IMG/VR virus record: IMGVR_UViG_3300034198_017033
Coordinates: 32,445 to 96,444 of that record
Source: a virus
Reading direction: 5' to 3' (one strand)
Length of the DNA stretch: 64,000 nucleotides
The notes below the pieces were generated by a model. The model did no database searches, was not told the origin of the DNA, and saw nothing but the letters and a program-made list of their open reading frames with translations. Shown in pieces: positions 9,552 to 35,805 of this stretch (positions are counted from its first letter, which is position 1; each line of letters opens with the position of its first letter). A program made the translations under genes and the position numbers.

Positions 9552-10952
9552 TTATGATAAACCTAACGCAGCATTTTGAATTTCAATACACTCATCTAAA
9601 GAATTAGCCTCACTCTTATCATCTCTAAAGTGTTTAAACGCTGGATATAACAATGAATAAGCACCTGTGTTATCAAATGAAAGACCAGAACACTTAACCT
9701 CAATAATTGTACCTAACAAATTATCTTGGTTTTTAGTAATTTCTTTCATTAAGTCTTCTTTTAACCCTTGTGGTCTAGTTTTTAATTTACCACATGATGT
9801 TTCGGCGTTCAATGAACTAACAACGTTTTCGTTTTTAGTTCCTTTGGTTCCGTAGTTGAATCCAGTAATAACCAAATCTAACGTTAATTCCAATTTAAGC
9901 TTAATTTGCCATGTTGGTTTACCATCTTTCCACTCACCATCCCACGCTTTAAGGATTGTACCTTCTTCACCTAACGCTAACACTTCTTTGAAGTGATTCA
10001 TAGCTTGCTTATAGTTATGAACAATCATACTCTCAATCAAATTAACACATGTAGAACCAGCATCTTGAATCACTTTTTCTAGTGTTGCTAAACGCTCAAC
10101 ATATTTAAGTTTTGATGATTTGTTGAAGTATTCATCTACGGTTAATCGGTCCCATACTGTGTAACGGATTTTATCTAACGCTTCTTCCAACGAACCATGT
10201 TTGTCATTGAACGCTTTTAATTTCTTTTCGTTCTCTTTTTCAGTTCTAGAGTCTTTTTTACCTAAGATGTCGATAAGAGAAGCTATGATACCGTTAGACT
10301 CATATCTAGGTGTATCAACCATTGTTAACTCACCATTAAGTACACAGTCTTCAAACGATTCTAATTCTTCTAAAAATTTAGCACCAGTAAGTGTTGTTGG
10401 TTCACCTTGGCGTGATTCCATTTCAACTTCACCATTTCGGATAACGGCATTACAGTAACGGCCATCCATTTTAATTTGTGAAAAACCCTTAGCACCTTTT
10501 TCGAAGATTTTACGAGCTTTCTTCTCATCAAAAGAAACAGCACCCATATAAGGTGTGTCTTCAATAAGGTCTTTGAATACTTTGTTCATAAATGTGGTAC
10601 CCATACCAATTTTACAATCTTTCTCAATTATACGTTCTACGATATAAGCATCATCAGCTGTCATATGTGATAAAATATCTTTTAATAATAAAGTAGCATA
10701 AGAACCAGTAGTAACTCTTAATGATAAACCATCTAATCTACCTAATTGACCTATAAAATCAATACCTTCTGGATATTCTAAAATAGGTGTATATTCAGGG
10801 ATTCTTTTGATATAAAATTTAACTCTTTTAGAGTTAGCCATATAAAGAACTTTTTTCAATAGTTCGTTGTCTTGGTACTTTCTAAGAATTTCAATCTTAG
10901 CGTTGTTACCGCTTTCAGCAGCAATCTCATCAAAAATTTGTTTGATTGTCAT
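9552..10952 (-). CDS. ATP-dependent DNA ligase (T4 gp30-like)
   Basis: N-terminus MTIKQIFDEIAAESGNNAKIEILRKYQDNELLKKV parallels T4 ligase. Motif I is IKMDGRY (KxDGxR). EGTILKAWDG is motif IV-like. Confidence 0.8.
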   Translation of the reverse strand: MTIKQIFDEIAAESGNNAKIEILRKYQDNELLKKVLYMANSKRVKFYIKRIPEYTPILEYPEGIDFIGQLGRLDGLSLRVTTGSYATLLLKDILSHMTADDAYIVERIIEKDCKIGMGTTFMNKVFKDLIEDTPYMGAVSFDEKKARKIFEKGAKGFSQIKMDGRYCNAVIRNGEVEMESRQGEPTTLTGAKFLEELESFEDCVLNGELTMVDTPRYESNGIIASLIDILGKKDSRTEKENEKKLKAFNDKHGSLEEALDKIRYTVWDRLTVDEYFNKSSKLKYVERLATLEKVIQDAGSTCVNLIESMIVHNYKQAMNHFKEVLALGEEGTILKAWDGEWKDGKPTWQIKLKLELTLDLVITGFNYGTKGTKNENVVSSLNAETSCGKLKTRPQGLKEDLMKEITKNQDNLLGTIIEVKCSGLSFDNTGAYSLLYPAFKHFRDDKSEANSLDECIEIQNAALGLS

Positions 10953-18383: not shown

Positions 18384-18650
18384 ATTTGTGAATGTGGTAG
18401 GGTATTCTCCTACAATTGTGGTGGTTAACTAGTCCCATGCTCCACGCCAGTTTTTCGTCTGGTGCTGTTGTAGTTTATCAGCATTAACACATTCTTATTT
18501 TTTTGTTCTTTTCAATTTGTGCTTTGATTCTAGCAATCTTTTCTGGACTTGGATTTCGGTCTACCGTATAAGATACACCCATTTTATCCAAGTAATCATA
18601 AAGACGCTGCATATCAGCTTCACTTGTCTTTTCCATCTTCTTTTATTTTG

Positions 18651-18724
18651 CGGGGCCGATGGGATTCGAACCCATGTAAAAGGATTAACAGTCCTCCGTA
18701 TTAGACCGCTGCTACGACAGCCCC
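18651..18724 (-). tRNA. tRNA-Asn (anticodon GTT)
   Basis: Acceptor GGGGCTG/CGGCCCC. Discriminator G. Anticodon stem-loop GAGGA-CTGTTAA-TCCTT. Confidence 0.75.
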
Positions 18725-19266
18725 TTGTTATTTCTTTCTTCTTCGTGTACTTCTCTGTGACAATTAGCACAAACTAAAATACATTTATCTAATTCTTTTT
18801 TTATTTTTTCCCAAGATGTACAATGACCTTTTCTGCTTATTAAAAAATCTTTTTCATTTGGGTCCATATGGTGAAACTCTAAAGCACCTATGTATTTATT
18901 ATAACCACATCTCTGACATGAACCGCCTTTGTATTCAACTGCCATCTCTTTGACTTTTTGTCTTCTTTTTACAACGGCTTTAACAGCTTTTTCTTTCCTC
19001 TCTTCTTCGCTTAAATAGACTCTTTTATTTTCAGTATATTTAGTTACAGTTGAAGCTCCAATCCCGAAATGTTTAGCTGTTTCAGCTTTACTATGAGTTA
19101 AATAATACTCATTAATTTTAGAAATTAAACTGTCAGTTATAACCTTACCACCTAAACCATTATTGTTAATGTGATATGATACGGTGCTTTTAGCACAACC
19201 CAATTCTTTAACAATTTCATCAATTTTTAAACCTTTTTTTCTTAATTCTAATATTTTTTCTTTCAT
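18712..19266 (-). CDS. HNH endonuclease with an N-terminal HTH (homing-endonuclease-like), inserted in the tRNA array
   Basis: HNH motif CQRCGY...EFHHMDP...LVCANCHREVH. N-terminal HTH IDEIVKELGCAKSTVSYHI. Confidence 0.6.
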   Translation of the reverse strand: MKEKILELRKKGLKIDEIVKELGCAKSTVSYHINNNGLGGKVITDSLISKINEYYLTHSKAETAKHFGIGASTVTKYTENKRVYLSEEERKEKAVKAVVKRRQKVKEMAVEYKGGSCQRCGYNKYIGALEFHHMDPNEKDFLISRKGHCTSWEKIKKELDKCILVCANCHREVHEEERNNKGLS

Positions 19267-19333
19267 AATTTGTTTTTATTATAAATATAATAAATTCGAA
19301 CAAAAAGTCAATAGATTAACAAAAAAATTTTCG

Positions 19334-19419
19334 CTCTGGCTGTAGGATTCGAACCTACGTTGAGGGTGTACCCTAGCAGATTAACAGTCTGCTGCCATCG
19401 TCCACTCGGCCAAACCAGA
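19334..19419 (-). tRNA. class-II-like tRNA (long variable arm), anticodon GTT, discriminator G
   Basis: Acceptor TCTGGTT/AGCCAGA. D-arm GCC-GAGTGGACGAT-GGC. Anticodon arm GCAGA-CTGTTAA-TCTGC is one base from the E. coli tRNA-Tyr arm GCAGACTGTAAATCTGC. Variable hairpin GGGTACACCC. T-arm GTAGG-TTCGAAT-CCTAC. Confidence 0.5.
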
Positions 19420-19832: not shown

Positions 19833-19834
19833 AG

Positions 19835-19918
19835 TTGTGACGGTGGGACTCGAACCCACATTGTGTTATAAACACCCAGCGTATCAGGCTGGTGACTAAA
19901 CCATTCATCCACATCACA
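19835..19918 (-). tRNA. class-II-like tRNA-like gene, anticodon GAT; the D-arm is poorly formed
   Basis: Acceptor TGTGATG/CGTCACA. Anticodon arm CCAGC-CTGATAC-GCTGG. Extra hairpin GTGTT-TAT-AACAC. T-arm GTGGG-TTCGAGT-CCCAC. Confidence 0.4.
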
Positions 19919-24297: not shown

Positions 24298-24766
24298 CGG
24301 TTATTATTTCAAAAAATTGATATTGTCTTGGTGACCAAATGTAGTCTAGTTGTTCTTGTGTGTATTGTATTTGCCCAAGCCATGGGTCAAGTATATTGTA
24401 TTTTTCATCATCAAATCCATTTACTATTATCCAATGTGGAACACCTTGTGTGATTGTTCTAACAATTGGAATGTTGTCTGAATCGATAACGCTTCTCAAT
24501 AACATATATGGGTTAGGAGAGTGTGTGTATTCCACATATTTCATATCATACTTATCAAAACCTTTAATCATTCTTTCTGGTGGTGTTCCTACCACCCAAT
24601 CAGTTCCGCAATCATCGGCTATTTCTTCTATGGGTTTTGTGATGTATACGTCAAAGGGTAAGTCGTTTGGTTTGTTGATTATGTAGTTTAGTGCCATGTA
24701 GATACATGTTGGTCCACATGTATTGCCAGTTGGTTGTTGTTTATAACTAATCGTAATCTTCTTCAT
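24287..24766 (-). CDS. C39-like papain-fold cysteine peptidase (putative)
   Basis: QQPTGNTCGPTCIYMALNY (a Q...CG Cys motif) with a later VPHWIIVNGFD candidate His. The start is uncertain among several Met codons. Confidence 0.45.
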   Translation of the reverse strand: MKKITISYKQQPTGNTCGPTCIYMALNYIINKPNDLPFDVYITKPIEEIADDCGTDWVVGTPPERMIKGFDKYDMKYVEYTHSPNPYMLLRSVIDSDNIPIVRTITQGVPHWIIVNGFDDEKYNILDPWLGQIQYTQEQLDYIWSPRQYQFFEIITDEN

Positions 24767-25124
24767 CACCGTAATTGTCGTACATATCATCCATATCATC
24801 TTCATCATCAAAATCAGAATCATCTTCATCACCAATAACTTCTTCTAAGAACGCTTCATCAATAAATACTCCGAATGAGTCACCAAATAATTTTTTAAGT
24901 GATTTAGCTTCTTCATTTGTAATTTCTTTAAAATCAACTCTAGATAAGAAATCATCTCCACTTGAGAATTCTAATTCATCTTGACCCATGGCGTAAATAA
25001 AAGGCCATGTAATGCTCATCGCAGTTTCTTCAAAGCTTTCAACTTCTTTTTCTGTCATTACGGTAAAACCGTTAATTTCAATGTCATCTAACGTGTCGGT
25101 AAATGTTACTAAAAATTTTGCCAT
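24747..25124 (-). CDS. hypothetical protein with an acidic C-terminal tail
   Basis: The tail is DEDDSDFDDEDDMDDMYDNYGDEEDYD. Confidence 0.45.
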   Translation of the reverse strand: MAKFLVTFTDTLDDIEINGFTVMTEKEVESFEETAMSITWPFIYAMGQDELEFSSGDDFLSRVDFKEITNEEAKSLKKLFGDSFGVFIDEAFLEEVIGDEDDSDFDDEDDMDDMYDNYGDEEDYD

Positions 25125-25176
25125 ATTCTTTTTGTTTATACGAATAAATATACTAATACACTAAACGAAATCAATA

Positions 25177-26386: not shown

Positions 26387-28339
26387 TTAATACATATTTT
26401 TACCTAACAAGCCTTCACGATACATTCTAGTTTTTAAATCTCGAACCCATCTGTTTCTATATTTTAAAGGTAAATTATTGTAAACAACTCTAATCGTTAC
26501 TGACATATTCATCATTTCATTAAAAGTTAAATTATCCCAAACATCTTGATATTTTCTTTTTAATTGATGAATATTATGTATTTGTGCTTGTATTTCTAAA
26601 GTATCAGCATCAATTGGTATGTTATTTCTACCAACTTTTTTATTTTTTTTGATGAATTTATCAACAGCTCTTTTTATTCTATTGTTGTTAAACGTATCAT
26701 CTAACCAATGTGTTAATTCATGATGTATAGAACCTTTGATTTTTTCTTCCGATAAATCTGATTTTATTTTTTTAGCATCATCCCATTCTAAATTATCTAA
26801 AGCTTTATCAAAATCATTATTGTTATCTTTTATAAATTCTAACGCTCTTTTAGATGCTGTAATTGAAATTGTTTTAGTGTTTGGGTTATAAATATTGTTG
26901 TCAAAGTTAATTAATATTTTACAAGGGTTTATTTCATTTGCTTTAACACATAATGGATTACTTAAAATACTAGTGCTTATAATTGTGTTATAAAACATAC
27001 TATTATTTAATTTTCTAGTTTTAAGTAATGTATCTAAATCCTCAGCAAAAAAATTATCATAAATTAAATCTACATCATCGTCTATATTGTAAAGAGCTTC
27101 AGTTATCAAACCTTCTCTGAGTGTATTTTTTACTTCGTTTAAATCTAATGATAACTGGTTAGGGTCAACGAATTTTTGTTTTTTCTTTTTTTCTTTTGGT
27201 TTTTTTACTCCAAAGTTCATTACTTTCATTGCAGTTGGTAAATCAATTAGGTACTCTATGTATTCGTTAACACTTCTACCATAGTCCTCATCGTCATCAT
27301 GAATATCTCTGTTTGACATAGTATAAAGTCTTTCATCACCAGTTTCACCATAATCTGAATAATCATATCTAAGTGGTTTTGTAAGGACATGCATAAACAA
27401 TTCAGAATCTGAAGGCTCTGAAAAATCTATTATTATATAACAATATCCGTTAGTTGAATTCCTAGACCAATCTTCCCAATTAGTAGAACCACCTTTTCTA
27501 TTATAAGTAAAACACCAAAGAGAATTACAACCAATTTCTTTTATCCCATTTGGACCAGAAACTTCAATAATCATTATGTTACCTTTATTATATTTAACTT
27601 TTAATTCGTCATAGTTTTCTTTATCATGTTTAAGTATTTGTCCTATTTGTTTTCTAGTTAAGTCAACACCACCAAGTAAGTTTTCTTTCTCTTGTACAAA
27701 ATCCAATACATCATCAAGTGTTGTGTTGTTAGTAAACATCTTTCTTAATATGCTGTTTCTAGCTTCTTCGTTTCTATTATTCAACTGACTAATATGCGCA
27801 TCAGCATGTTCTAAATCATCTCTATAACTATTCATTTGGGAGCTATCTCTTTCAGTTCTAATATCAGTTTTCATATTACGTTTAGCTATTGAAGGCCATT
27901 CATTAAAGATATTAAGTATTTTTTCACGCTGAATCAACCCTCTAATTAAATCATTTGTATCTTGAACACCATTGATGTTGAAACCTTTGATGGGGAATAC
28001 ATTTTTATCGTATTCTTTTAATTGGTTGTATATTGGTCTTAATTTTTGCAAATCAGGTGTACTCATCACATCATTTTCTGGTTTTTCAGTTTCTTGATGT
28101 TCTGGGTCTAATTGTTTAAGAGCCCATTCACCAGTTCTATGATTATTGGTTAACATCGTATAGTAGATGTCAGTCATTATTTTGGTATATGGGTCACCAT
28201 TGGTGATACGTGTAATTATTTCTCTAACTCTAGGTGATAACTTCCCAGAATTGAAATAAACCTTATCAGCCAATTGTAAGTTTTCTCTAAGTAATTGTTT
28301 AATTAAATTCTTCATTTTTTTTAAAAGGGTTTGTTTCAC
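26387..28339 (-). CDS. large hypothetical protein with the shared N-terminal motif
   Basis: 650-aa ORF. The N-terminus contains MKNLIKQLLRENL. Confidence 0.5.
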   Translation of the reverse strand: MKQTLLKKMKNLIKQLLRENLQLADKVYFNSGKLSPRVREIITRITNGDPYTKIMTDIYYTMLTNNHRTGEWALKQLDPEHQETEKPENDVMSTPDLQKLRPIYNQLKEYDKNVFPIKGFNINGVQDTNDLIRGLIQREKILNIFNEWPSIAKRNMKTDIRTERDSSQMNSYRDDLEHADAHISQLNNRNEEARNSILRKMFTNNTTLDDVLDFVQEKENLLGGVDLTRKQIGQILKHDKENYDELKVKYNKGNIMIIEVSGPNGIKEIGCNSLWCFTYNRKGGSTNWEDWSRNSTNGYCYIIIDFSEPSDSELFMHVLTKPLRYDYSDYGETGDERLYTMSNRDIHDDDEDYGRSVNEYIEYLIDLPTAMKVMNFGVKKPKEKKKKQKFVDPNQLSLDLNEVKNTLREGLITEALYNIDDDVDLIYDNFFAEDLDTLLKTRKLNNSMFYNTIISTSILSNPLCVKANEINPCKILINFDNNIYNPNTKTISITASKRALEFIKDNNNDFDKALDNLEWDDAKKIKSDLSEEKIKGSIHHELTHWLDDTFNNNRIKRAVDKFIKKNKKVGRNNIPIDADTLEIQAQIHNIHQLKRKYQDVWDNLTFNEMMNMSVTIRVVYNNLPLKYRNRWVRDLKTRMYREGLLGKNMY

Positions 28340-29974: not shown

Positions 29975-30108
29975 TTGTTTTCTTTTTAAATTTATTATAA
30001 TTGTTAGTAGTTGGACAAGTTGTCCAAGATAATGTCCAAGTTATAATAAACTTAATTCGGTGGTCTTGCAATCTACATCATGATTTCTATGTTTTAAATT
30101 ATTATTAG

Positions 30109-30178
30109 AGGTTTGGGGTGGATTCGAACCACCGTGCCAGTTCTTGCGGAACTGTACCTACCACTCGGTCACCAAACC
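30109..30178 (-). tRNA. tRNA-Cys (anticodon GCA), discriminator U; atypical C33 in the anticodon loop
   Basis: Acceptor GGTTTGG/CCAAACC. Anticodon stem-loop CAGTT-CCGCAAG-AACTG. T-arm GGTGG-TTCGAAT-CCACC. Confidence 0.5.
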
Positions 30179-30184
30179 ATTTAA

Positions 30185-30442
30185 TTAAGGGTAAATCGTT
30201 GCGACTACCCTATTGTTTATTTTTTCAATTTTCAATTTAGCTTTGAATTTAATAGAACCCTTTGTACTTGGGTTGTCTGGTGTTTCTTTGGTAGTAAAAC
30301 CTACACCAGATTCCATATCTACGTGGTCTACATAATATGTTTCACCCTTGGCTTTGATTACCCACATAGGTATACTAGGGTCTTGTAAAGACATTTTGTT
30401 AAAATGGAAAATGATTTCTGTTCTGGATTGAATATTAAGCAT
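30185..30442 (-). CDS. hypothetical protein
   Basis: 85-aa ORF. Confidence 0.4.
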   Translation of the reverse strand: MLNIQSRTEIIFHFNKMSLQDPSIPMWVIKAKGETYYVDHVDMESGVGFTTKETPDNPSTKGSIKFKAKLKIEKINNRVVATIYP

Positions 30443-30785
30443 ATTGAACCTCCTTTCCTAATAACGGACATGAACTGGTAAGTTTTTTAGCCGCGTCTGT
30501 TGGTTCAAAGGCTACTGCTGTAATCACGTTACCCAAATCTGGTTCACGGAAAATAGTGTGTTTGATACCAATAAAGATAGCTTTGGTAATCAATTTGATT
30601 AACTCTTCTTCATCAGCGACAGTTAATAATGCTAAATAATTTGATTTTGTTTGCCATTGTGATGCCACTTCTGGGTGGTCATGTTGAAAATCAATGGCTG
30701 CGTGTGCCGATTGCACCGCTTGTGTGGAAATTGGTAAGTCACGTCTTGTGACAACTCTTAATTTTTGATTGTTAATCTAAGTCAT
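30435..30785 (-). CDS. PTH2-family peptidyl-tRNA hydrolase homolog; full length only if the in-frame TAG at codon 3 (30777-30779) is read through (otherwise GTG start at 30716)
   Basis: LRVVTRRDLPISTQAVQSAHAAIDF aligns with human PTH2 [42 protein letters not shown] aligns with [20 protein letters not shown]. The frame reads ATG ACT TAG ATT AAC. Confidence 0.45.
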
Positions 30786-30845
30786 TTGTTCTATTTGTTT
30801 TTTGTTTATAAATATATCATTTTTCTAAAAAATGTAAAGTGTTTG

Positions 30846-30918
30846 TAGTTCTAATCGGACTCGAACCGATATTTCTCCGTTTTAGAGGCGGGCGTATTCA
30901 CGTTAATACTATAGAACC
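30846..30918 (-). tRNA. suppressor-type tRNA with anticodon CTA (reads UAG), 73 nt with standard numbering, discriminator A
   Basis: Acceptor GGTTCTA/TAGAACT. D-arm GTAT-TAACGTGA-ATAC. Anticodon loop positions 32-38 are CTCTAAA (U33, A37). The anticodon stem is weak (3 GC pairs flanked by C-A pairs). T-arm ATCGG-TTCGAGT-CCGAT. Confidence 0.55.
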
Positions 30919-30926
30919 TTATTGTG

Positions 30927-30939
30927 ATACAAAGATACC
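30927..30939 (-). promoter_or_regulatory. -7 promoter element (gatacaaagatacc) about 12 nt upstream of the CTA-tRNA 5' end, with caactttttt A-tract repeats further upstream
   Basis: Consensus motif. The tRNA has its own promoter. Confidence 0.5.
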
Positions 30940-30968
30940 ACAACTTTTTTAATTGTGCAACTTTTTTT

Positions 30969-31525: not shown

Positions 31526-32464
31526 TTATTTAAGTTGGTTTAACACTGCTGTGCTACCCACAACTTGTGGTACCCTTGGTGTGTTAGGGTTGATGTCAAT
31601 CCATTTTAAGTATTCAACATACAACGGAGTGATTTCTTGTTTTCTAATTCTCATAGCTTCTGCTTGTGCTTTAGCCGCGATAATTGTTTGTTGTGCATCA
31701 CCATTAGCAATAGCCACTTTCTTTCTAGCTTCAGCTTCAGCTGTAAGAGCTTTTTGGTCCTCAGCTTGTGCTTGTTGAATCGCTCTAGTTTTAGCTATAA
31801 TTGTTTCTTGTAAGGATTGTGGTGGAACAATGTTTGTTCTTAATTGTGACACGGTAAACCATTTAGATAAACGCTTGTTACATTCAGTTTTAATCGCAGC
31901 TTCAAATTGTTCACGCTCGTTAAAGATTTTATCAACCTCCCATTTATTAGCAACGTCATTAATAGCACCAACTATGGCTGTTTGTAACCAACCTTGTTCT
32001 ACTGATTTAATATCCAAACGTAAATTCTGGAACATATCACCAACAGCACCAGCTTTTAATGAATAGTTAAAACTTGGGTGAATTGTCGCTGGGAAACCAC
32101 CTTTGGTTATAACTTGTTGTTTTTCATATCCAATAGTTTGTTGGAAAACTGGAAACTGATAAAGTTGTTCAGTCCATGTATTGAATACTACCCAACCAGT
32201 TTTGTATTCATACTTTGATACACCGCGTGCATCACCAGATAAGTTGACTTTGATACCTACGTTACCAGCATCGACCCTATCTAATTTGTAAGGTTGAGTA
32301 AAACCTAACGTAAGGCCCAAAACTAATATTAGTATTGGTTTAATTAACCAAACACTATTAAATTCTGTTCCCCAGTTGGTTTGTTTTGTGCTCGATTCCC
32401 TTGTGGAAAGAGCGATTACTATCGCCATTATTAGCGATAAAACAATAATAATTGTTGAAATCAT
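31526..32464 (-). CDS. SPFH/band-7 (prohibitin/stomatin-like) membrane protein
   Basis: N-terminal TM helix, SPFH core, and a C-terminal Ala/Glu-rich helix (TAEAEARKKVAIANGDAQ). Confidence 0.6.
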   Translation of the reverse strand: MISTIIIVLSLIMAIVIALSTRESSTKQTNWGTEFNSVWLIKPILILVLGLTLGFTQPYKLDRVDAGNVGIKVNLSGDARGVSKYEYKTGWVVFNTWTEQLYQFPVFQQTIGYEKQQVITKGGFPATIHPSFNYSLKAGAVGDMFQNLRLDIKSVEQGWLQTAIVGAINDVANKWEVDKIFNEREQFEAAIKTECNKRLSKWFTVSQLRTNIVPPQSLQETIIAKTRAIQQAQAEDQKALTAEAEARKKVAIANGDAQQTIIAAKAQAEAMRIRKQEITPLYVEYLKWIDINPNTPRVPQVVGSTAVLNQLK

Positions 32465-32748: not shown

Positions 32749-33426
32749 TTACGATAGTAATTGTATTTTACCTCTGTATATGTCTTTTATATTTGCAGTC
32801 TTTTCTGTGATATGGTCGATTACAACACCATCTTTAACTCTGTAGGTTCTTCGTTTATCACCTCTATCACCCTTCCCGATTTGGTCTTTTCTTTGTTCAC
32901 TAGCTTCATTATCATGACCGCTTCTATAAAAATCGTTTACTCGTTTTTTTAATTCGACAAGAGCTTCTTCTTTATTTTTATGTTGGCATCTTCCGTTTCT
33001 TACAACTTTAATACCTGTTGCTTCATGAGTTACAATTACTGTAGAGTCAGTAGTGTTGCGGTGCTGCCCACCTGGACCAGTCCCTCTAGTTGTTTCTAAA
33101 CGATATTCACTTGGATGTATCTCTACTTCTTTGTAATCGTTTTCTTGCATAAGTGCTACTGTTATTGAACTAGTGTGGACTCTTCCCTTACGTTCGGTTG
33201 GTGGGACTCTTTGCCACCTGTGGTTACCAATTTCGTTTTCGAAGATTTTTTTGACATTTTTACCAGTTAGTCATATGCTAACATAGCCATCTCTTTCTTC
33301 ATCGGTTATTCATCCGATGTTATTAATGTTTGCTGCTTTGGTGTAAATGTCTTTCATTTCACACACCAATAGCTTTGCATCGGTCCCGCCCTCTGCACCA
33401 CGAATTTCAAGTTTAATCTTTTCCAT
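32749..33426 (-). CDS. class I peptide chain release factor, RF1-like (domains 2-4 only), frame interrupted by two in-frame TGA codons (33312-33314 and 33270-33272)
   Basis: Conceptual translation [14 protein letters not shown]...[23 protein letters not shown]...[25 protein letters not shown]...GPGGQHRN...[15 protein letters not shown]. It has the PxT (PPT) and GGQ motifs. The first TGA aligns with the conserved Trp of the RF1 RRWRVEI block. Confidence 0.55.
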
Positions 33427-33496: not shown

Positions 33497-33552
33497 ACAG
33501 AATAGTCTTTTTTGTATCCTAAACATTAAATTGCTGAATCTATTCTTCTAGT

Positions 33553-33638
33553 TGCGGAAGTAGGATTCGAACCTACAACACAGTGTTACTGCTCCTCTAG
33601 GTTATGAGCCTAGCATGTTACCATTTCCACCATTCCGC
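33553..33638 (-). tRNA. class-II-like tRNA-like gene, anticodon CAT; D-arm and acceptor are imperfect
   Basis: Anticodon arm CTAGG-CTCATAA-CCTAG. Extra hairpin CAGT-AAC-ACTG. T-arm GTAGG-TTCGAAT-CCTAC. The acceptor has about 6 bp. Confidence 0.4.
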
Positions 33639-33646
33639 GATGTATT

Positions 33647-35377: not shown

Positions 35378-35410
35378 CTCGAGGAGCTGACGGGAATCGA
35401 ACCCGCGTCT
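35378..35410 (-). other. tRNA 3'-half-like fragment (T-arm GCGGG-TTCGATT-CCCGT plus an acceptor 3' strand) with no recognisable 5' half
   Basis: Canonical T-loop sequence. No pairing 5' acceptor strand was found within about 400 nt. Confidence 0.3.
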
Positions 35411-35805
35411 TGAGTATTCTTCAAATGTTTTCTACATGTTTAGCTACAATTTTTCTTCTAGCGCCAGAATATATTATCGATGGCATCCAATAATAAAGAT
35501 GAATGGTGTACCATTATTTAGTGAATTATCACTATCAAGTGGATTACCACTATTTGCAGTTTTAAGCTACTGCTAACTCTCCGTTAGAAACCATTACAGC
35601 TTCATCAAGGAAATTTTCAGATACGATAAAATCGTTGTCAATTCAATGTTTAATAGACAGATTAAAGTGCTTCCAATCTAGCACTACATGCTTACAGTTT
35701 ACGACTATACCCAATCAAAACCAACCAACCCCATATTTTTCTAAGAACTTGTGATTTATAAATATGCGGGCACACATTAAAAAACCCGCATATCCTAAAT
35801 CTTTT

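Follow-up and report, generated by a model that had tools for sequence, protein, structure and literature searches.

The DNA analysed here is a stretch of 64,000 nucleotides (nt) of a virus genome (IMG/VR record IMGVR_UViG_3300034198_017033, positions 32,445 to 96,444), which we call the window. It encodes a transfer RNA (tRNA) with the anticodon CUA, complementary to the amber stop codon UAG, and, downstream on the same strand, a protein of the peptidyl-tRNA hydrolase family PTH2. The reading frame of the PTH2 gene begins ATG-ACT-TAG, with the stop codon in frame as codon 3. The following features lie at this locus:

30930-30960, minus strand: putative Bacteroidota-type promoter of the tRNA gene, read from the sequence as TTG (30960-30958), 20 nt and TATCTTTG (30937-30930)
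30845-30918, minus strand: tRNA with anticodon CUA (ARAGORN), anticodon loop CUCUAAA, discriminator base A73
30809-30838, minus strand: putative promoter-like element between the tRNA and PTH2 genes, found in consensus scans as TTTACA, 16 nt and TATATTTA
30780-30785, minus strand: leader ATG ACT, encoding Met-Thr (ATG 30785-30783, ACT 30782-30780)
30777-30779, minus strand: amber codon TAG, in frame as codon 3; the next base is A (TAG-A), by direct reading
30435-30776, minus strand: PTH2 coding sequence after the amber codon, 113 codons and TAA, identified with Pfam, NCBIfam and Pth2 chains of the PDB
30714-30716, minus strand: GTG, the first canonical start codon (ATG, GTG or TTG) after the TAG, inside helix 1 and past beta-strand 1

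The leader ATG lies 60 nt downstream of the tRNA gene, behind an A-rich leader without a Shine-Dalgarno (SD) sequence, as is typical of Bacteroidota. ATT and AAC follow the TAG, and the frame is open to the TAA at 30435. An initial annotation, made by a model from the letters of the window, had described a PTH2 frame starting ATG-ACT-TAG about 60 nt downstream of the tRNA, which was confirmed by the sequence and by the Pfam family PF01981. Residues 5-95 of the protein encoded after the TAG matched positions 2-102 of the 115 in this profile, covering the whole domain, with 33.1 bits (curated cut-off, 23). The NCBIfam Pth2 models matched below their equivalog cut-offs (30 bits versus 82 and 126), and the protein appears to belong to a divergent subfamily. 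In phmmer searches, it matched the PDB chains 1q7s, 1rzw, 2zv3 and 1wn2 with E values from 5e-4 to 9e-3, starting from query residues 7-10. The segment KLRVVTRRDL, corresponding to beta-strand 1, aligned with human PTH2/Bit1 (1q7s) from residue 4 and with archaeal Pth2 chains; by sequence alignment, the likeness to solved Pth2 structures includes the N-terminal beta-strand. The motif REPD...ITA(V/I)A was invariant across this PTH2 family, for which peptidyl-tRNA hydrolase activity is predicted. Homologues of the window protein in databases numbered 291.

Standard gene callers, including that of JGI, annotate a product of 93 amino acids (aa) from the GTG at 30716. We rejected this start. It would remove beta-strand 1, a consequence foreseen in the initial annotation and upheld by the alignments to PF01981 and the PDB chains, and the codons before the GTG evolve as coding sequence. 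Among 28 distinct relatives, the 16 codons before the GTG showed 1819, 740 and 2664 pairwise differences at codon positions 1, 2 and 3, respectively. Since the differences fell mostly on third positions, these codons are evidently translated in the PTH2 frame. The frame upstream of the GTG, whose loss in related phages would have spoken for the later start, was conserved in all relatives. Because beta-strand 1 lies between the TAG and the GTG, PTH2 needs decoding through the TAG to keep its N-terminal strand.

The Rfam tRNA model matched at 30846-30918 (minus strand) with 50.2 bits against a gathering score of 29. These are the coordinates of the initial annotation, and its anticodon, CUA, was also that read by ARAGORN, within a cloverleaf and in a 7-nt loop after U33. 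The loop CUCUAAA, likewise read earlier, recurred in the syntenic tRNAs of related phages. It was common to 35 of 40 distinct syntenic tRNAs, most of them with A73, and the tRNA bodies were very diverse. Because the syntenic tRNAs of relatives have a normal anticodon stem of 5 base pairs and the same loop as the window copy, the anticodon is CUA and not UCU.

The tRNA gene had further been predicted to possess its own -7 promoter. The box TATCTTTG was present, and close relatives (L001-L006) retained its TAnnTTTG form; the known Bacteroidota -33/-7 consensus suggests that the TTG/TATCTTTG element serves as a promoter. The core TATATTTAT of the promoter-like element at 30809-30838 was also conserved in relatives. 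Its motif, TTKACW, 16 nt and TATATTTA, was found at 30809-30838, 19282-19311 and 25145-25174, all on the minus strand, preceding PTH2 and the open reading frames (ORFs) at 18712-19266 and 24747-25124. Both of these ORFs end in TAG, and in a sample this small the recurrence of the motif before TAG-ending ORFs may be due to chance.

Loci for comparison were collected from IMG/VR (13 by protein and 43 by alignment of relatives) and from ENA, NCBI and Logan contigs. Removal of identical sequences left 49 non-identical PTH2 loci, with identities down to about 31-40%, from metagenomic jumbo phages, huge phages of 460-735 kilobases (kb) and cultured phages. All 49 carried TAG after a start codon and 0-7 sense codons, and TAA, TGA or a sense codon stood in its place in none. 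The start codon was ATG in 47 loci and GTG in a Myrna-type pair. The leaders varied (MT, MK, MN, MI, MS, ML, MTH, MKN, MNN, MKH, MKQH, MKKPFYY). After the TAG came ATT (32 loci), GTT, GTA or GTG (13), or CTT, ATC, ATA and AAC (one each), and a purine followed in all but one locus. In many loci, there was no ATG, GTG or TTG between the TAG and beta-strand 1, the next codon being GTA, GTT, CTT, AAT or ACC. The recurrence of the arrangement in 49 of 49 non-identical homologous loci excludes chance. Since the TAG was invariant in these diverged loci while the length and sequence of the leader varied, the TAG is under selection.

In public databases this codon is hidden. The best 120 database homologues were either truncated calls or had 'Q' at the TAG position. 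When the 'Q' was checked in the DNA of three contigs (two proteins; L014-L016), the codon was TAG, translated with genetic code 15. Homologues beginning MTQINN... were consequently rejected as evidence that TAG encodes Gln. The same code-15 translation of TAG would account for the Q throughout the MTQINN- or MKQINN-type proteins (P0001, P0014 and about 90 more). The leaders of named phages were as follows:

Huge phage LR756500: MK-TAG
Huge phage LR756501: MS-TAG
Huge phage LR745206: MNN-TAG
Huge phage LR756511: AGGAG, 7 nt, ATG ACT CAC TAG
Tenacibaculum phage pT24 (cultured; L099/L110, record position about 194083): ATG AAA TAG
XacN1 (L112): ATG AAG TAG
Xoo-sp13 (L101): ATG AAG AAG TAG
Stenotrophomonas phage RAS14 (L113): ATG AAG TAG
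Acinetobacter phage ME3 (L117): ATG ACT TAG
Cronobacter phage GAP32 (L114): ATG GCA CAA TAG
Yersinia phage fHe-Yen9-04 (L115): ATG TCT CAC TAG
Sinorhizobium phage Phosso: ATG AAG TAT TAG

XacN1, Xoo-sp13, RAS14, ME3, GAP32 and fHe-Yen9-04 are cultured jumbo phages of Proteobacteria. The Proteobacteria phages had an SD sequence 5-8 nt before the leader ATG and none before any later codon, and in RAS14, GAP32, Yen9-04 and ME3 the conserved strand followed the TAG without an intervening start codon. Public annotations (pT24, XacN1 ORF364, RAS14, GAP32_397, fHe-Yen9-04, ME3 gp266, Xoosp13_327) start PTH2 downstream or split it into 'hypothetical proteins'. In several cultured phages, PTH2 was fused or adjacent to an HD-motif domain. 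The cluster C mycobacteriophages (L102-L106) carried ATG TAG GTG (Bxz1, Catera, Cane17) or GTG TAG GTG (Myrna, Phabba). In these, ARAGORN read a CUA tRNA about 120-310 nt past the PTH2 end, which the records list as 'other', Arg(tct) or Ser; in Bxz1-type phages, the next tRNAs are tRNA-Met and tRNA-Cys. The mycobacteriophage case is only suggestive. Counter-examples also existed. The PTH2 homologues of Lak-A1 and of the T4-like phage phiAS5 start normally, and RaK2 has kept CAT TAG GTA and lost the leader ATG, with an ATG after the GTA. Canonical PTH2 paralogues in RsoM2USA (MTHKQ...) and XacN1 (ORF295, MTVKQ...) lack the stop, and the leader MTH matches the N-terminus MTHK of such an ungated paralogue.

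A syntenic tRNA(CUA) was present at nearly all related loci. In close relatives it preceded the leader by 45-200 nt, and in L051 by 670 nt. In distant relatives it was found about 0.9-1.2 kb downstream of PTH2, on the opposite strand in L092. LR756500 had it at a distance of about 1.1 kb; in LR756501, with two copies, the distance was about 2.4 kb. In ME3, whose record gives 'anticodon CTA', the tRNA preceded the gene by 450 nt, and in pT24 (annotated tRNA-Sup) by 2.5 kb. The pairing of tRNA(CUA) with PTH2 has survived rearrangement, and as judged from these loci it spans phages of Bacteroidota and Proteobacteria and, probably, of Actinobacteria. XacN1 carries two tRNA(CUA) genes in its terminal repeats, for which the authors found no target (PMC5852040). 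Some relatives (L047, L069, L097) had two or three different tRNA(CUA) genes; those of L047 lie at 9837-9913, 10666-10739 and 18569-18654 and include an 86-nt type with a long arm. In such phages, the tRNAs that read UAG may differ in identity.

Agrobacterium phage Atu_ph07 is reported to have 33 tRNAs, the single suppressor among them having the anticodon UCA (PMC6102473). Its PTH2 gene carries the matching stop codon in the leader:

Atu_ph07 PTH2 (AUZ95035), 38553-39073 of L120, minus strand (198552-199072 of MF403008): leader stop TGA

The gene is annotated from an ATG past beta-strand 1. Upstream, GAAAGG and 7 nt precede ATG ATT GGC GAA CAC TTT TGA (MIGEHF-stop). The frame after the TGA runs from ATT AAT TAT GAA... 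to ...DKLRIYSIVRDDLE-MTAGK, with no start codon before beta-strand 1, and its product matched the Pfam PTH2 profile from residue 23 with 73.9 bits. The PTH2 of Phosso, 72% identical to that of Atu_ph07, has TAG instead of TGA. Atu_ph07 itself was the only locus of its kind in IMG/VR. A partnership of tRNA and codon predicts a joint switch of stop and anticodon, which would not be expected of a pure RF1 sensor or of a plain mini-ORF. The pairing of tRNA(CUA) with a TAG gene across loci, and of UCA with TGA in Atu_ph07, indirectly supports the view that the window tRNA is aminoacylated and may decode UAG on the ribosome.

Several explanations of the leader TAG were weighed. The first is genome-wide recoding of the kind known from crAss-like and Lak phages (code 15), affecting late genes that lie outside the window. 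In its favour, the phage encodes a tRNA(CUA), small contigs with PTH2 were translated with code 15 by public gene callers, some relatives have the several tRNA(CUA) genes noted above, and the window is 64 kb long, against a likely genome size of about 350 kb. The PTH2 gene of LR756501 (L097, a 735-kb huge phage; about 688.2 kb) also contains a second, internal in-frame TAG (EFP*IYEQW), and in this and more distant huge phages TAG may be used more widely as a sense codon. Yet the TAG of PTH2 was the only credible in-frame one in the window, and no other was found in 543 kb of relatives. ORFs covered 0.87 of the window with the standard code; recoding of TAG raised this to 0.90, and recoding of TGA, as a control, to 0.895. 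TAG terminated 4-6 window genes (6 of 81 ORF-genes). Stops with at least 70 open codons on each side were counted in the window and 30 related loci of 12-22 kb (607 kb): there were 6 TAG, 50 TAA and 12 TGA, counts of the kind that adjacent genes in the same frame produce. The complete genome of pT24 (234,670 bp), with one tRNA(CUA) among three or four tRNAs, is standard-code throughout. There, TAG ends about 34 of 268 ORF-genes, including those for terminase, ligase and helicase, and no long gene, structural genes included, was interrupted by it. Exactly one pT24 locus, the PTH2 gene, showed an ATG followed within 8 codons by TAG and then by at least 90 open codons without a nearby start. A sense TAG should, moreover, alternate with synonymous codons over 49 diverged loci, which it never does. 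Code 15 would be marked by a set of TAG-interrupted genes, a TAG-specific gain in coverage and avoidance of TAG as terminator, none of which was seen in these data. Structural genes sought near the window for signs of late-gene recoding gave weak or absent PHROG matches. Recoding is thus very improbable. The description of the amber codon as isolated and gene-specific in the initial annotation agrees with the lack of a TAG excess in the window and the 543 kb of relatives and with the single leader-TAG gene of pT24. Its link to recoding in Bacteroidota phages held as an analogy and not beyond, as this lineage is not known to recode stops. Two other candidate leader-TAG genes in the window were rejected: the CCA-adding enzyme gene at 26406 starts normally, with an ATG preceded by a -7 box, and the candidate at 24847 is a low-complexity alternative frame. 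We give still less credence to a decayed gene, in which the TAG is a nonsense mutation, what remains is a pseudogene or the 93-aa product, and the tRNA(CUA) arose by chance mutation. The gene calls from the GTG agree with it. The comparative data contradict it: against it stand the TAG in 49 of 49 loci from phages of three host phyla, the strong purifying selection between TAG and GTG, and the loss of beta-strand 1 and part of helix 1 that truncation would bring.

Alternatively, ATG-ACT-TAG could be a leader mini-ORF, with PTH2 made by termination and re-initiation at the adjacent codon (ATT here; in mycobacteriophages, GTG) or by near-cognate read-through sensitive to RF1; the UAG would then act as an RF1 sensor like that of prfB, and tRNA(CUA) would have another job. 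The weak start codon ATT does follow the TAG in 32 of 49 loci. UAG is the sole stop codon read only by RF1, which could alone explain the invariant TAG, and the frameshift site CTT-TAG-C in an RF1-like gene of relatives (see below) implies that these phages sense UAG termination. In mycobacteriophages the SD sequence is better spaced for the annotated GTG directly after the TAG, and XacN1 and Xoo-sp13 have an ATG 4-5 codons after it; by their sequences, these phages could make PTH2 without suppression. Such a mini-ORF is hard to reconcile with the many loci that have GTA, GTT, CTT, AAT or ACC after the TAG and no start before beta-strand 1, with a tRNA(CUA) linked to PTH2 through rearrangements and across phyla, with the UCA suppressor and TGA leader of Atu_ph07, and with a leader MTH that is homologous to the real N-terminus of an ungated paralogue. 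We consider this explanation unlikely; it would apply mainly to phages with a start codon after the TAG, such as the mycobacteriophages, XacN1 and Xoo-sp13.

We therefore regard it as probable that PTH2 is gated by the phage suppressor tRNA and is made only when this tRNA outcompetes the release factor at the leader TAG. Besides the phages that could initiate downstream, several observations weigh against this conclusion. The anticodon stem of the window tRNA(CUA) is weak, with 3 Watson-Crick pairs between two C.A mismatches. Compared with 116 other phage tRNAs, it had only weak best matches, to tRNAs of mixed identity (Trp, Arg, Cys, Met and others). No tRNA(CUA) was found in the flanks examined (short, or 0.6-3 kb) of L077, L094, LR745206, LR756511, GAP32, Yen9-04 and RAS14. 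The covariation of stop and anticodon is a single event in one phage, with the anticodon as given in the paper. TAG also ends ordinary genes in these genomes, which strong suppression would extend, and this sets a limit on the efficiency or duration of suppression. Lastly, that read-through occurs and depends on the phage tRNA(CUA) is something we infer from the sequences. On balance, the gate is well supported, and the earlier proposal that a suppressor tRNA and an amber-codon target may form a translational switch is strengthened by the comparative evidence.

In the proposed mechanism, the phage would transcribe the suppressor tRNA (CUA) from a host-type promoter. A ribosome would initiate at the AUG of AUG-ACU-UAG and reach the UAG holding a dipeptidyl-tRNA (2-8 residues across loci). 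If RF1 wins, the dipeptide would be released and no enzyme made; success of the charged suppressor tRNA would let the ribosome read on into full-length PTH2. The output of PTH2 would depend on how much working suppressor tRNA there is relative to RF1 activity. With the gate ahead of the first conserved strand, a failed attempt would cost almost nothing and any inserted residue would be tolerated; the leader is variable in sequence, so that it need not matter which residue is inserted there. The ungated paralogues (MTHK, MTVK) have Lys at the position equivalent to the leader stop, which is only a hint to the amino acid carried by tRNA(CUA). The CUCUAAA loop and the purine after UAG match contexts that favour suppression in classic work in Escherichia coli, and the codon context at these loci fits efficient suppression.

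The purpose of the gate can be proposed with less assurance. PTH2 would appear only after expression, maturation and charging of the phage tRNA set, and its amount would scale with suppression. Ribosomes would stall and drop off more often when natural UAG stops are suppressed or tRNAs are attacked, and PTH2 would recycle the peptidyl-tRNAs of ribosomes that stalled or dropped off under disturbed UAG termination, alongside a nearby phage transfer-messenger RNA (tmRNA) and an RF1-like factor. Clearing the drop-off products of suppression, as the initial annotation had proposed, is the purpose that we infer. A further role is speculative. Archaeal-type Pth2 may not spare fMet-tRNAfMet, and if it attacks this tRNA, the gate could protect initiation until the initiator-like tRNAs of the phage are in place. 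Bacterial Pth spares fMet-tRNAfMet (PMC3488237). More tentatively still than the gate itself, and with somewhat more doubt than confidence, we suggest an ancient two-component 'stop-codon interlock' in large phages of at least three phyla, with the start of PTH2 as a conserved, perhaps the only dedicated, target of a suppressor tRNA (CUA, or UCA in Atu_ph07). PTH2 would then be licensed by a functioning phage tRNA system, in a natural gene switch based on a tRNA that acts in trans. It would explain the orphan suppressor tRNAs of standard-code phages and could seed genome-wide TAG recoding. In this lineage it would be joined with an RF1-like factor, gated by in-frame UGA codons or by a prfB-like +1 frameshift on UAG, in a circuit that senses and resets the decoding of stop codons.

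The window has a G+C content of 31%, genes almost all on the minus strand and 15 tRNA genes. It encodes a ClpP-like protease, RNA ligases, a polynucleotide kinase-like protein, a CCA-adding enzyme and a DNA ligase, and is a translation and RNA-repair region of a jumbo phage. Its relatives sit on contigs of 230-370 kb, and the IMG/VR contig L017 showed no difference in the part that was compared. Among cultured phages, a DNA search gave only a weak match, to Flavobacterium phage FL-1. A Bacteroidota host is indicated by the TAnnTTTG promoters. Three neighbouring features are relevant to translation and to PTH2:

35379-35732, minus strand: phage tmRNA (Rfam RF00023, 72.4 bits; missed by ARAGORN)
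32749-33426, minus strand: RF1-like release factor without domain 1, with two in-frame TGA codons (33312-33310 and 33273-33271)
30185-30442, minus strand: 85-aa ORF, a conserved partner whose ATG overlaps the PTH2 stop (ATGCTTAA)

The tmRNA was also present in the relatives L013, L047 and L049, beside ClpP-like and DnaJ genes. The 85-aa ORF had no Pfam or NCBIfam match. Equivalents of 83-89 aa overlap PTH2 in L047, L049 and L051, and the overlap ATGCTTAA suggests that the ORF is probably translationally coupled to PTH2.

The RF1-like factor has 225 residues and matched the NCBIfam RF1 model with 190 bits (RF2, 102; PrfH, 75). The match covered profile positions 105-333 of 347, and because it starts at position 105 the protein lacks domain 1. 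It has the tripeptide PPT at the place of the PxT of RF1, and the GGQ motif. The two TGA codons are codons 39 and 52 of the gene, and both were kept in L001, L002, L004, L005 and L047. In L006, L049 and L010/L011, both positions encode Cys (TGT or TGC), and the second Cys is followed by CTT TAG C and then the +1 frame; this is the prfB frameshift heptamer with UAG for UGA. Stop codons inside a release-factor gene are thus a further feature of these phages. L051 (3602-5314) and L052 (6612-8324) carry a copy of the N-terminal fragment and a full copy of the RF1-like gene, with a 268-aa ORF between them. The fragment copy has TGA and then TAG at the two positions, and the second copy has Cys and then a stop; the arrangement looks like an insertion or duplication. 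The RF1-like gene lies in the same translation-termination neighbourhood as the PTH2 gate, to which it is presumably linked.

Some further tRNAs were unusual. tRNA-Cys(GCA), downstream of PTH2 (30108-30178, minus strand), has C33 instead of the near-universal U33 and the loop CCGCAAG, and gave no Rfam tRNA match at E <= 0.1; at its position in some relatives, ARAGORN gives tRNAs with 2- or 4-base 'anticodons'. tRNA-Met(CAT) at 33551-33639 (minus strand) is 89 nt long, with a long extra arm and an initiator-like C1/A72 end. The tRNAs at 19333-19419 (tRNA-Asn, 87 nt) and 19834-19918 (tRNA-Ile, 85 nt) are also unusually long.

The full texts searched, including Borges et al., Iyer et al., a 2026 jumbo-phage survey and the papers on XacN1, Atu_ph07 and RsoM2USA, contained no report of an in-frame stop in a phage PTH2 gene or of PTH2 as a suppressor-tRNA target, within an incomplete coverage of the literature. 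Suppressor-tRNA-dependent decoding of in-frame stops in phages is already known; the PTH2-specific gate proposed here is new as far as we found. The first codons of the PTH2 gene offer a conserved, testable target for the suppressor tRNAs that recur in standard-code phages, and could be studied in cultured systems of Tenacibaculum, Acinetobacter, Xanthomonas, Agrobacterium and possibly Mycobacterium smegmatis. If the gate is real, it would be a natural form of gene control by a dedicated pair of tRNA and stop codon, as in synthetic amber-gated expression. It would suggest a first step to stop reassignment, in which a tRNA is followed by one tolerated in-frame stop and then by many. The PTH2 starts of pT24 gp293, XacN1 ORF364, GAP32_397, ME3 gp266 and Atu_ph07 AUZ95035 would have to be corrected. 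A 'Q' in public protein databases can be a code-15 artefact.

In phages that recode TAG to Gln (crAss-like and Lak phages), a phage tRNA(CUA) reads in-frame TAG in a standard-code host, as proposed here, and it has been suggested that genes recoded in this way are not expressed before the tRNA has been produced (Borges et al., bioRxiv 10.1101/2021.08.26.457843; Peters et al., PMC9523058). Recoded phages carry many TAGs at variable positions, in tens to hundreds of genes that mostly act late or in lysis, and few of their genes end in TAG. Here, in contrast, one gene has one TAG, fixed near its start, and TAG is a normal stop elsewhere. Borges et al. (10.1101/2021.08.26.457843) do not mention peptidyl-tRNA hydrolase. 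Phage-encoded PTH2 is described in jumbo phages, the class concerned here, by Iyer et al. 2021 (PMC7824862); in that survey, the word 'suppressor' does not occur and the PTH2 passages do not refer to an in-frame stop. The orphan suppressor tRNAs of XacN1 (PMC5852040), RsoM2USA (PMC8504454) and Atu_ph07 (PMC6102473) belong to the same class of phages and tRNAs, and a gated PTH2 is present in XacN1 and Atu_ph07. Those papers sought C-terminal extensions or counted stops and reported no specific target, whereas the target proposed here is the N-terminus of a mis-annotated PTH2 (XacN1 ORF364, Atu_ph07 AUZ95035).

Three other systems are comparable. In prfB, which encodes RF2, an early in-frame stop likewise makes the synthesis of a termination-related protein depend on stop recognition. 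There, a +1 frameshift at CUU-UGA-C senses the gene's own product, whereas in PTH2 frame 0 continues after the TAG, a dedicated tRNA would decode the stop in frame, and the product is a hydrolase. The pyrrolysine system also pairs a gene-specific in-frame UAG with a dedicated tRNA(CUA), and ARAGORN labels every CUA tRNA 'tRNA-Pyl'. The window tRNA, however, is a normal cloverleaf with a GTTCGAGTC T-loop, its UAG lies in a non-conserved leader and not at a catalytic residue, and neither pylS nor pylBCD was found among the window proteins scanned, which were part of the ORFs. The bar minigenes of phage lambda, ORFs of 2-3 codons with the form AUG-NNN-stop, are a classic source of peptidyl-tRNA drop-off and thereby of Pth substrate, and the PTH2 leader would have the same form if suppression fails. 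Whereas bar minigenes are free-standing and toxic to Pth-deficient hosts, the mini-ORF here is fused in frame to a hydrolase gene.

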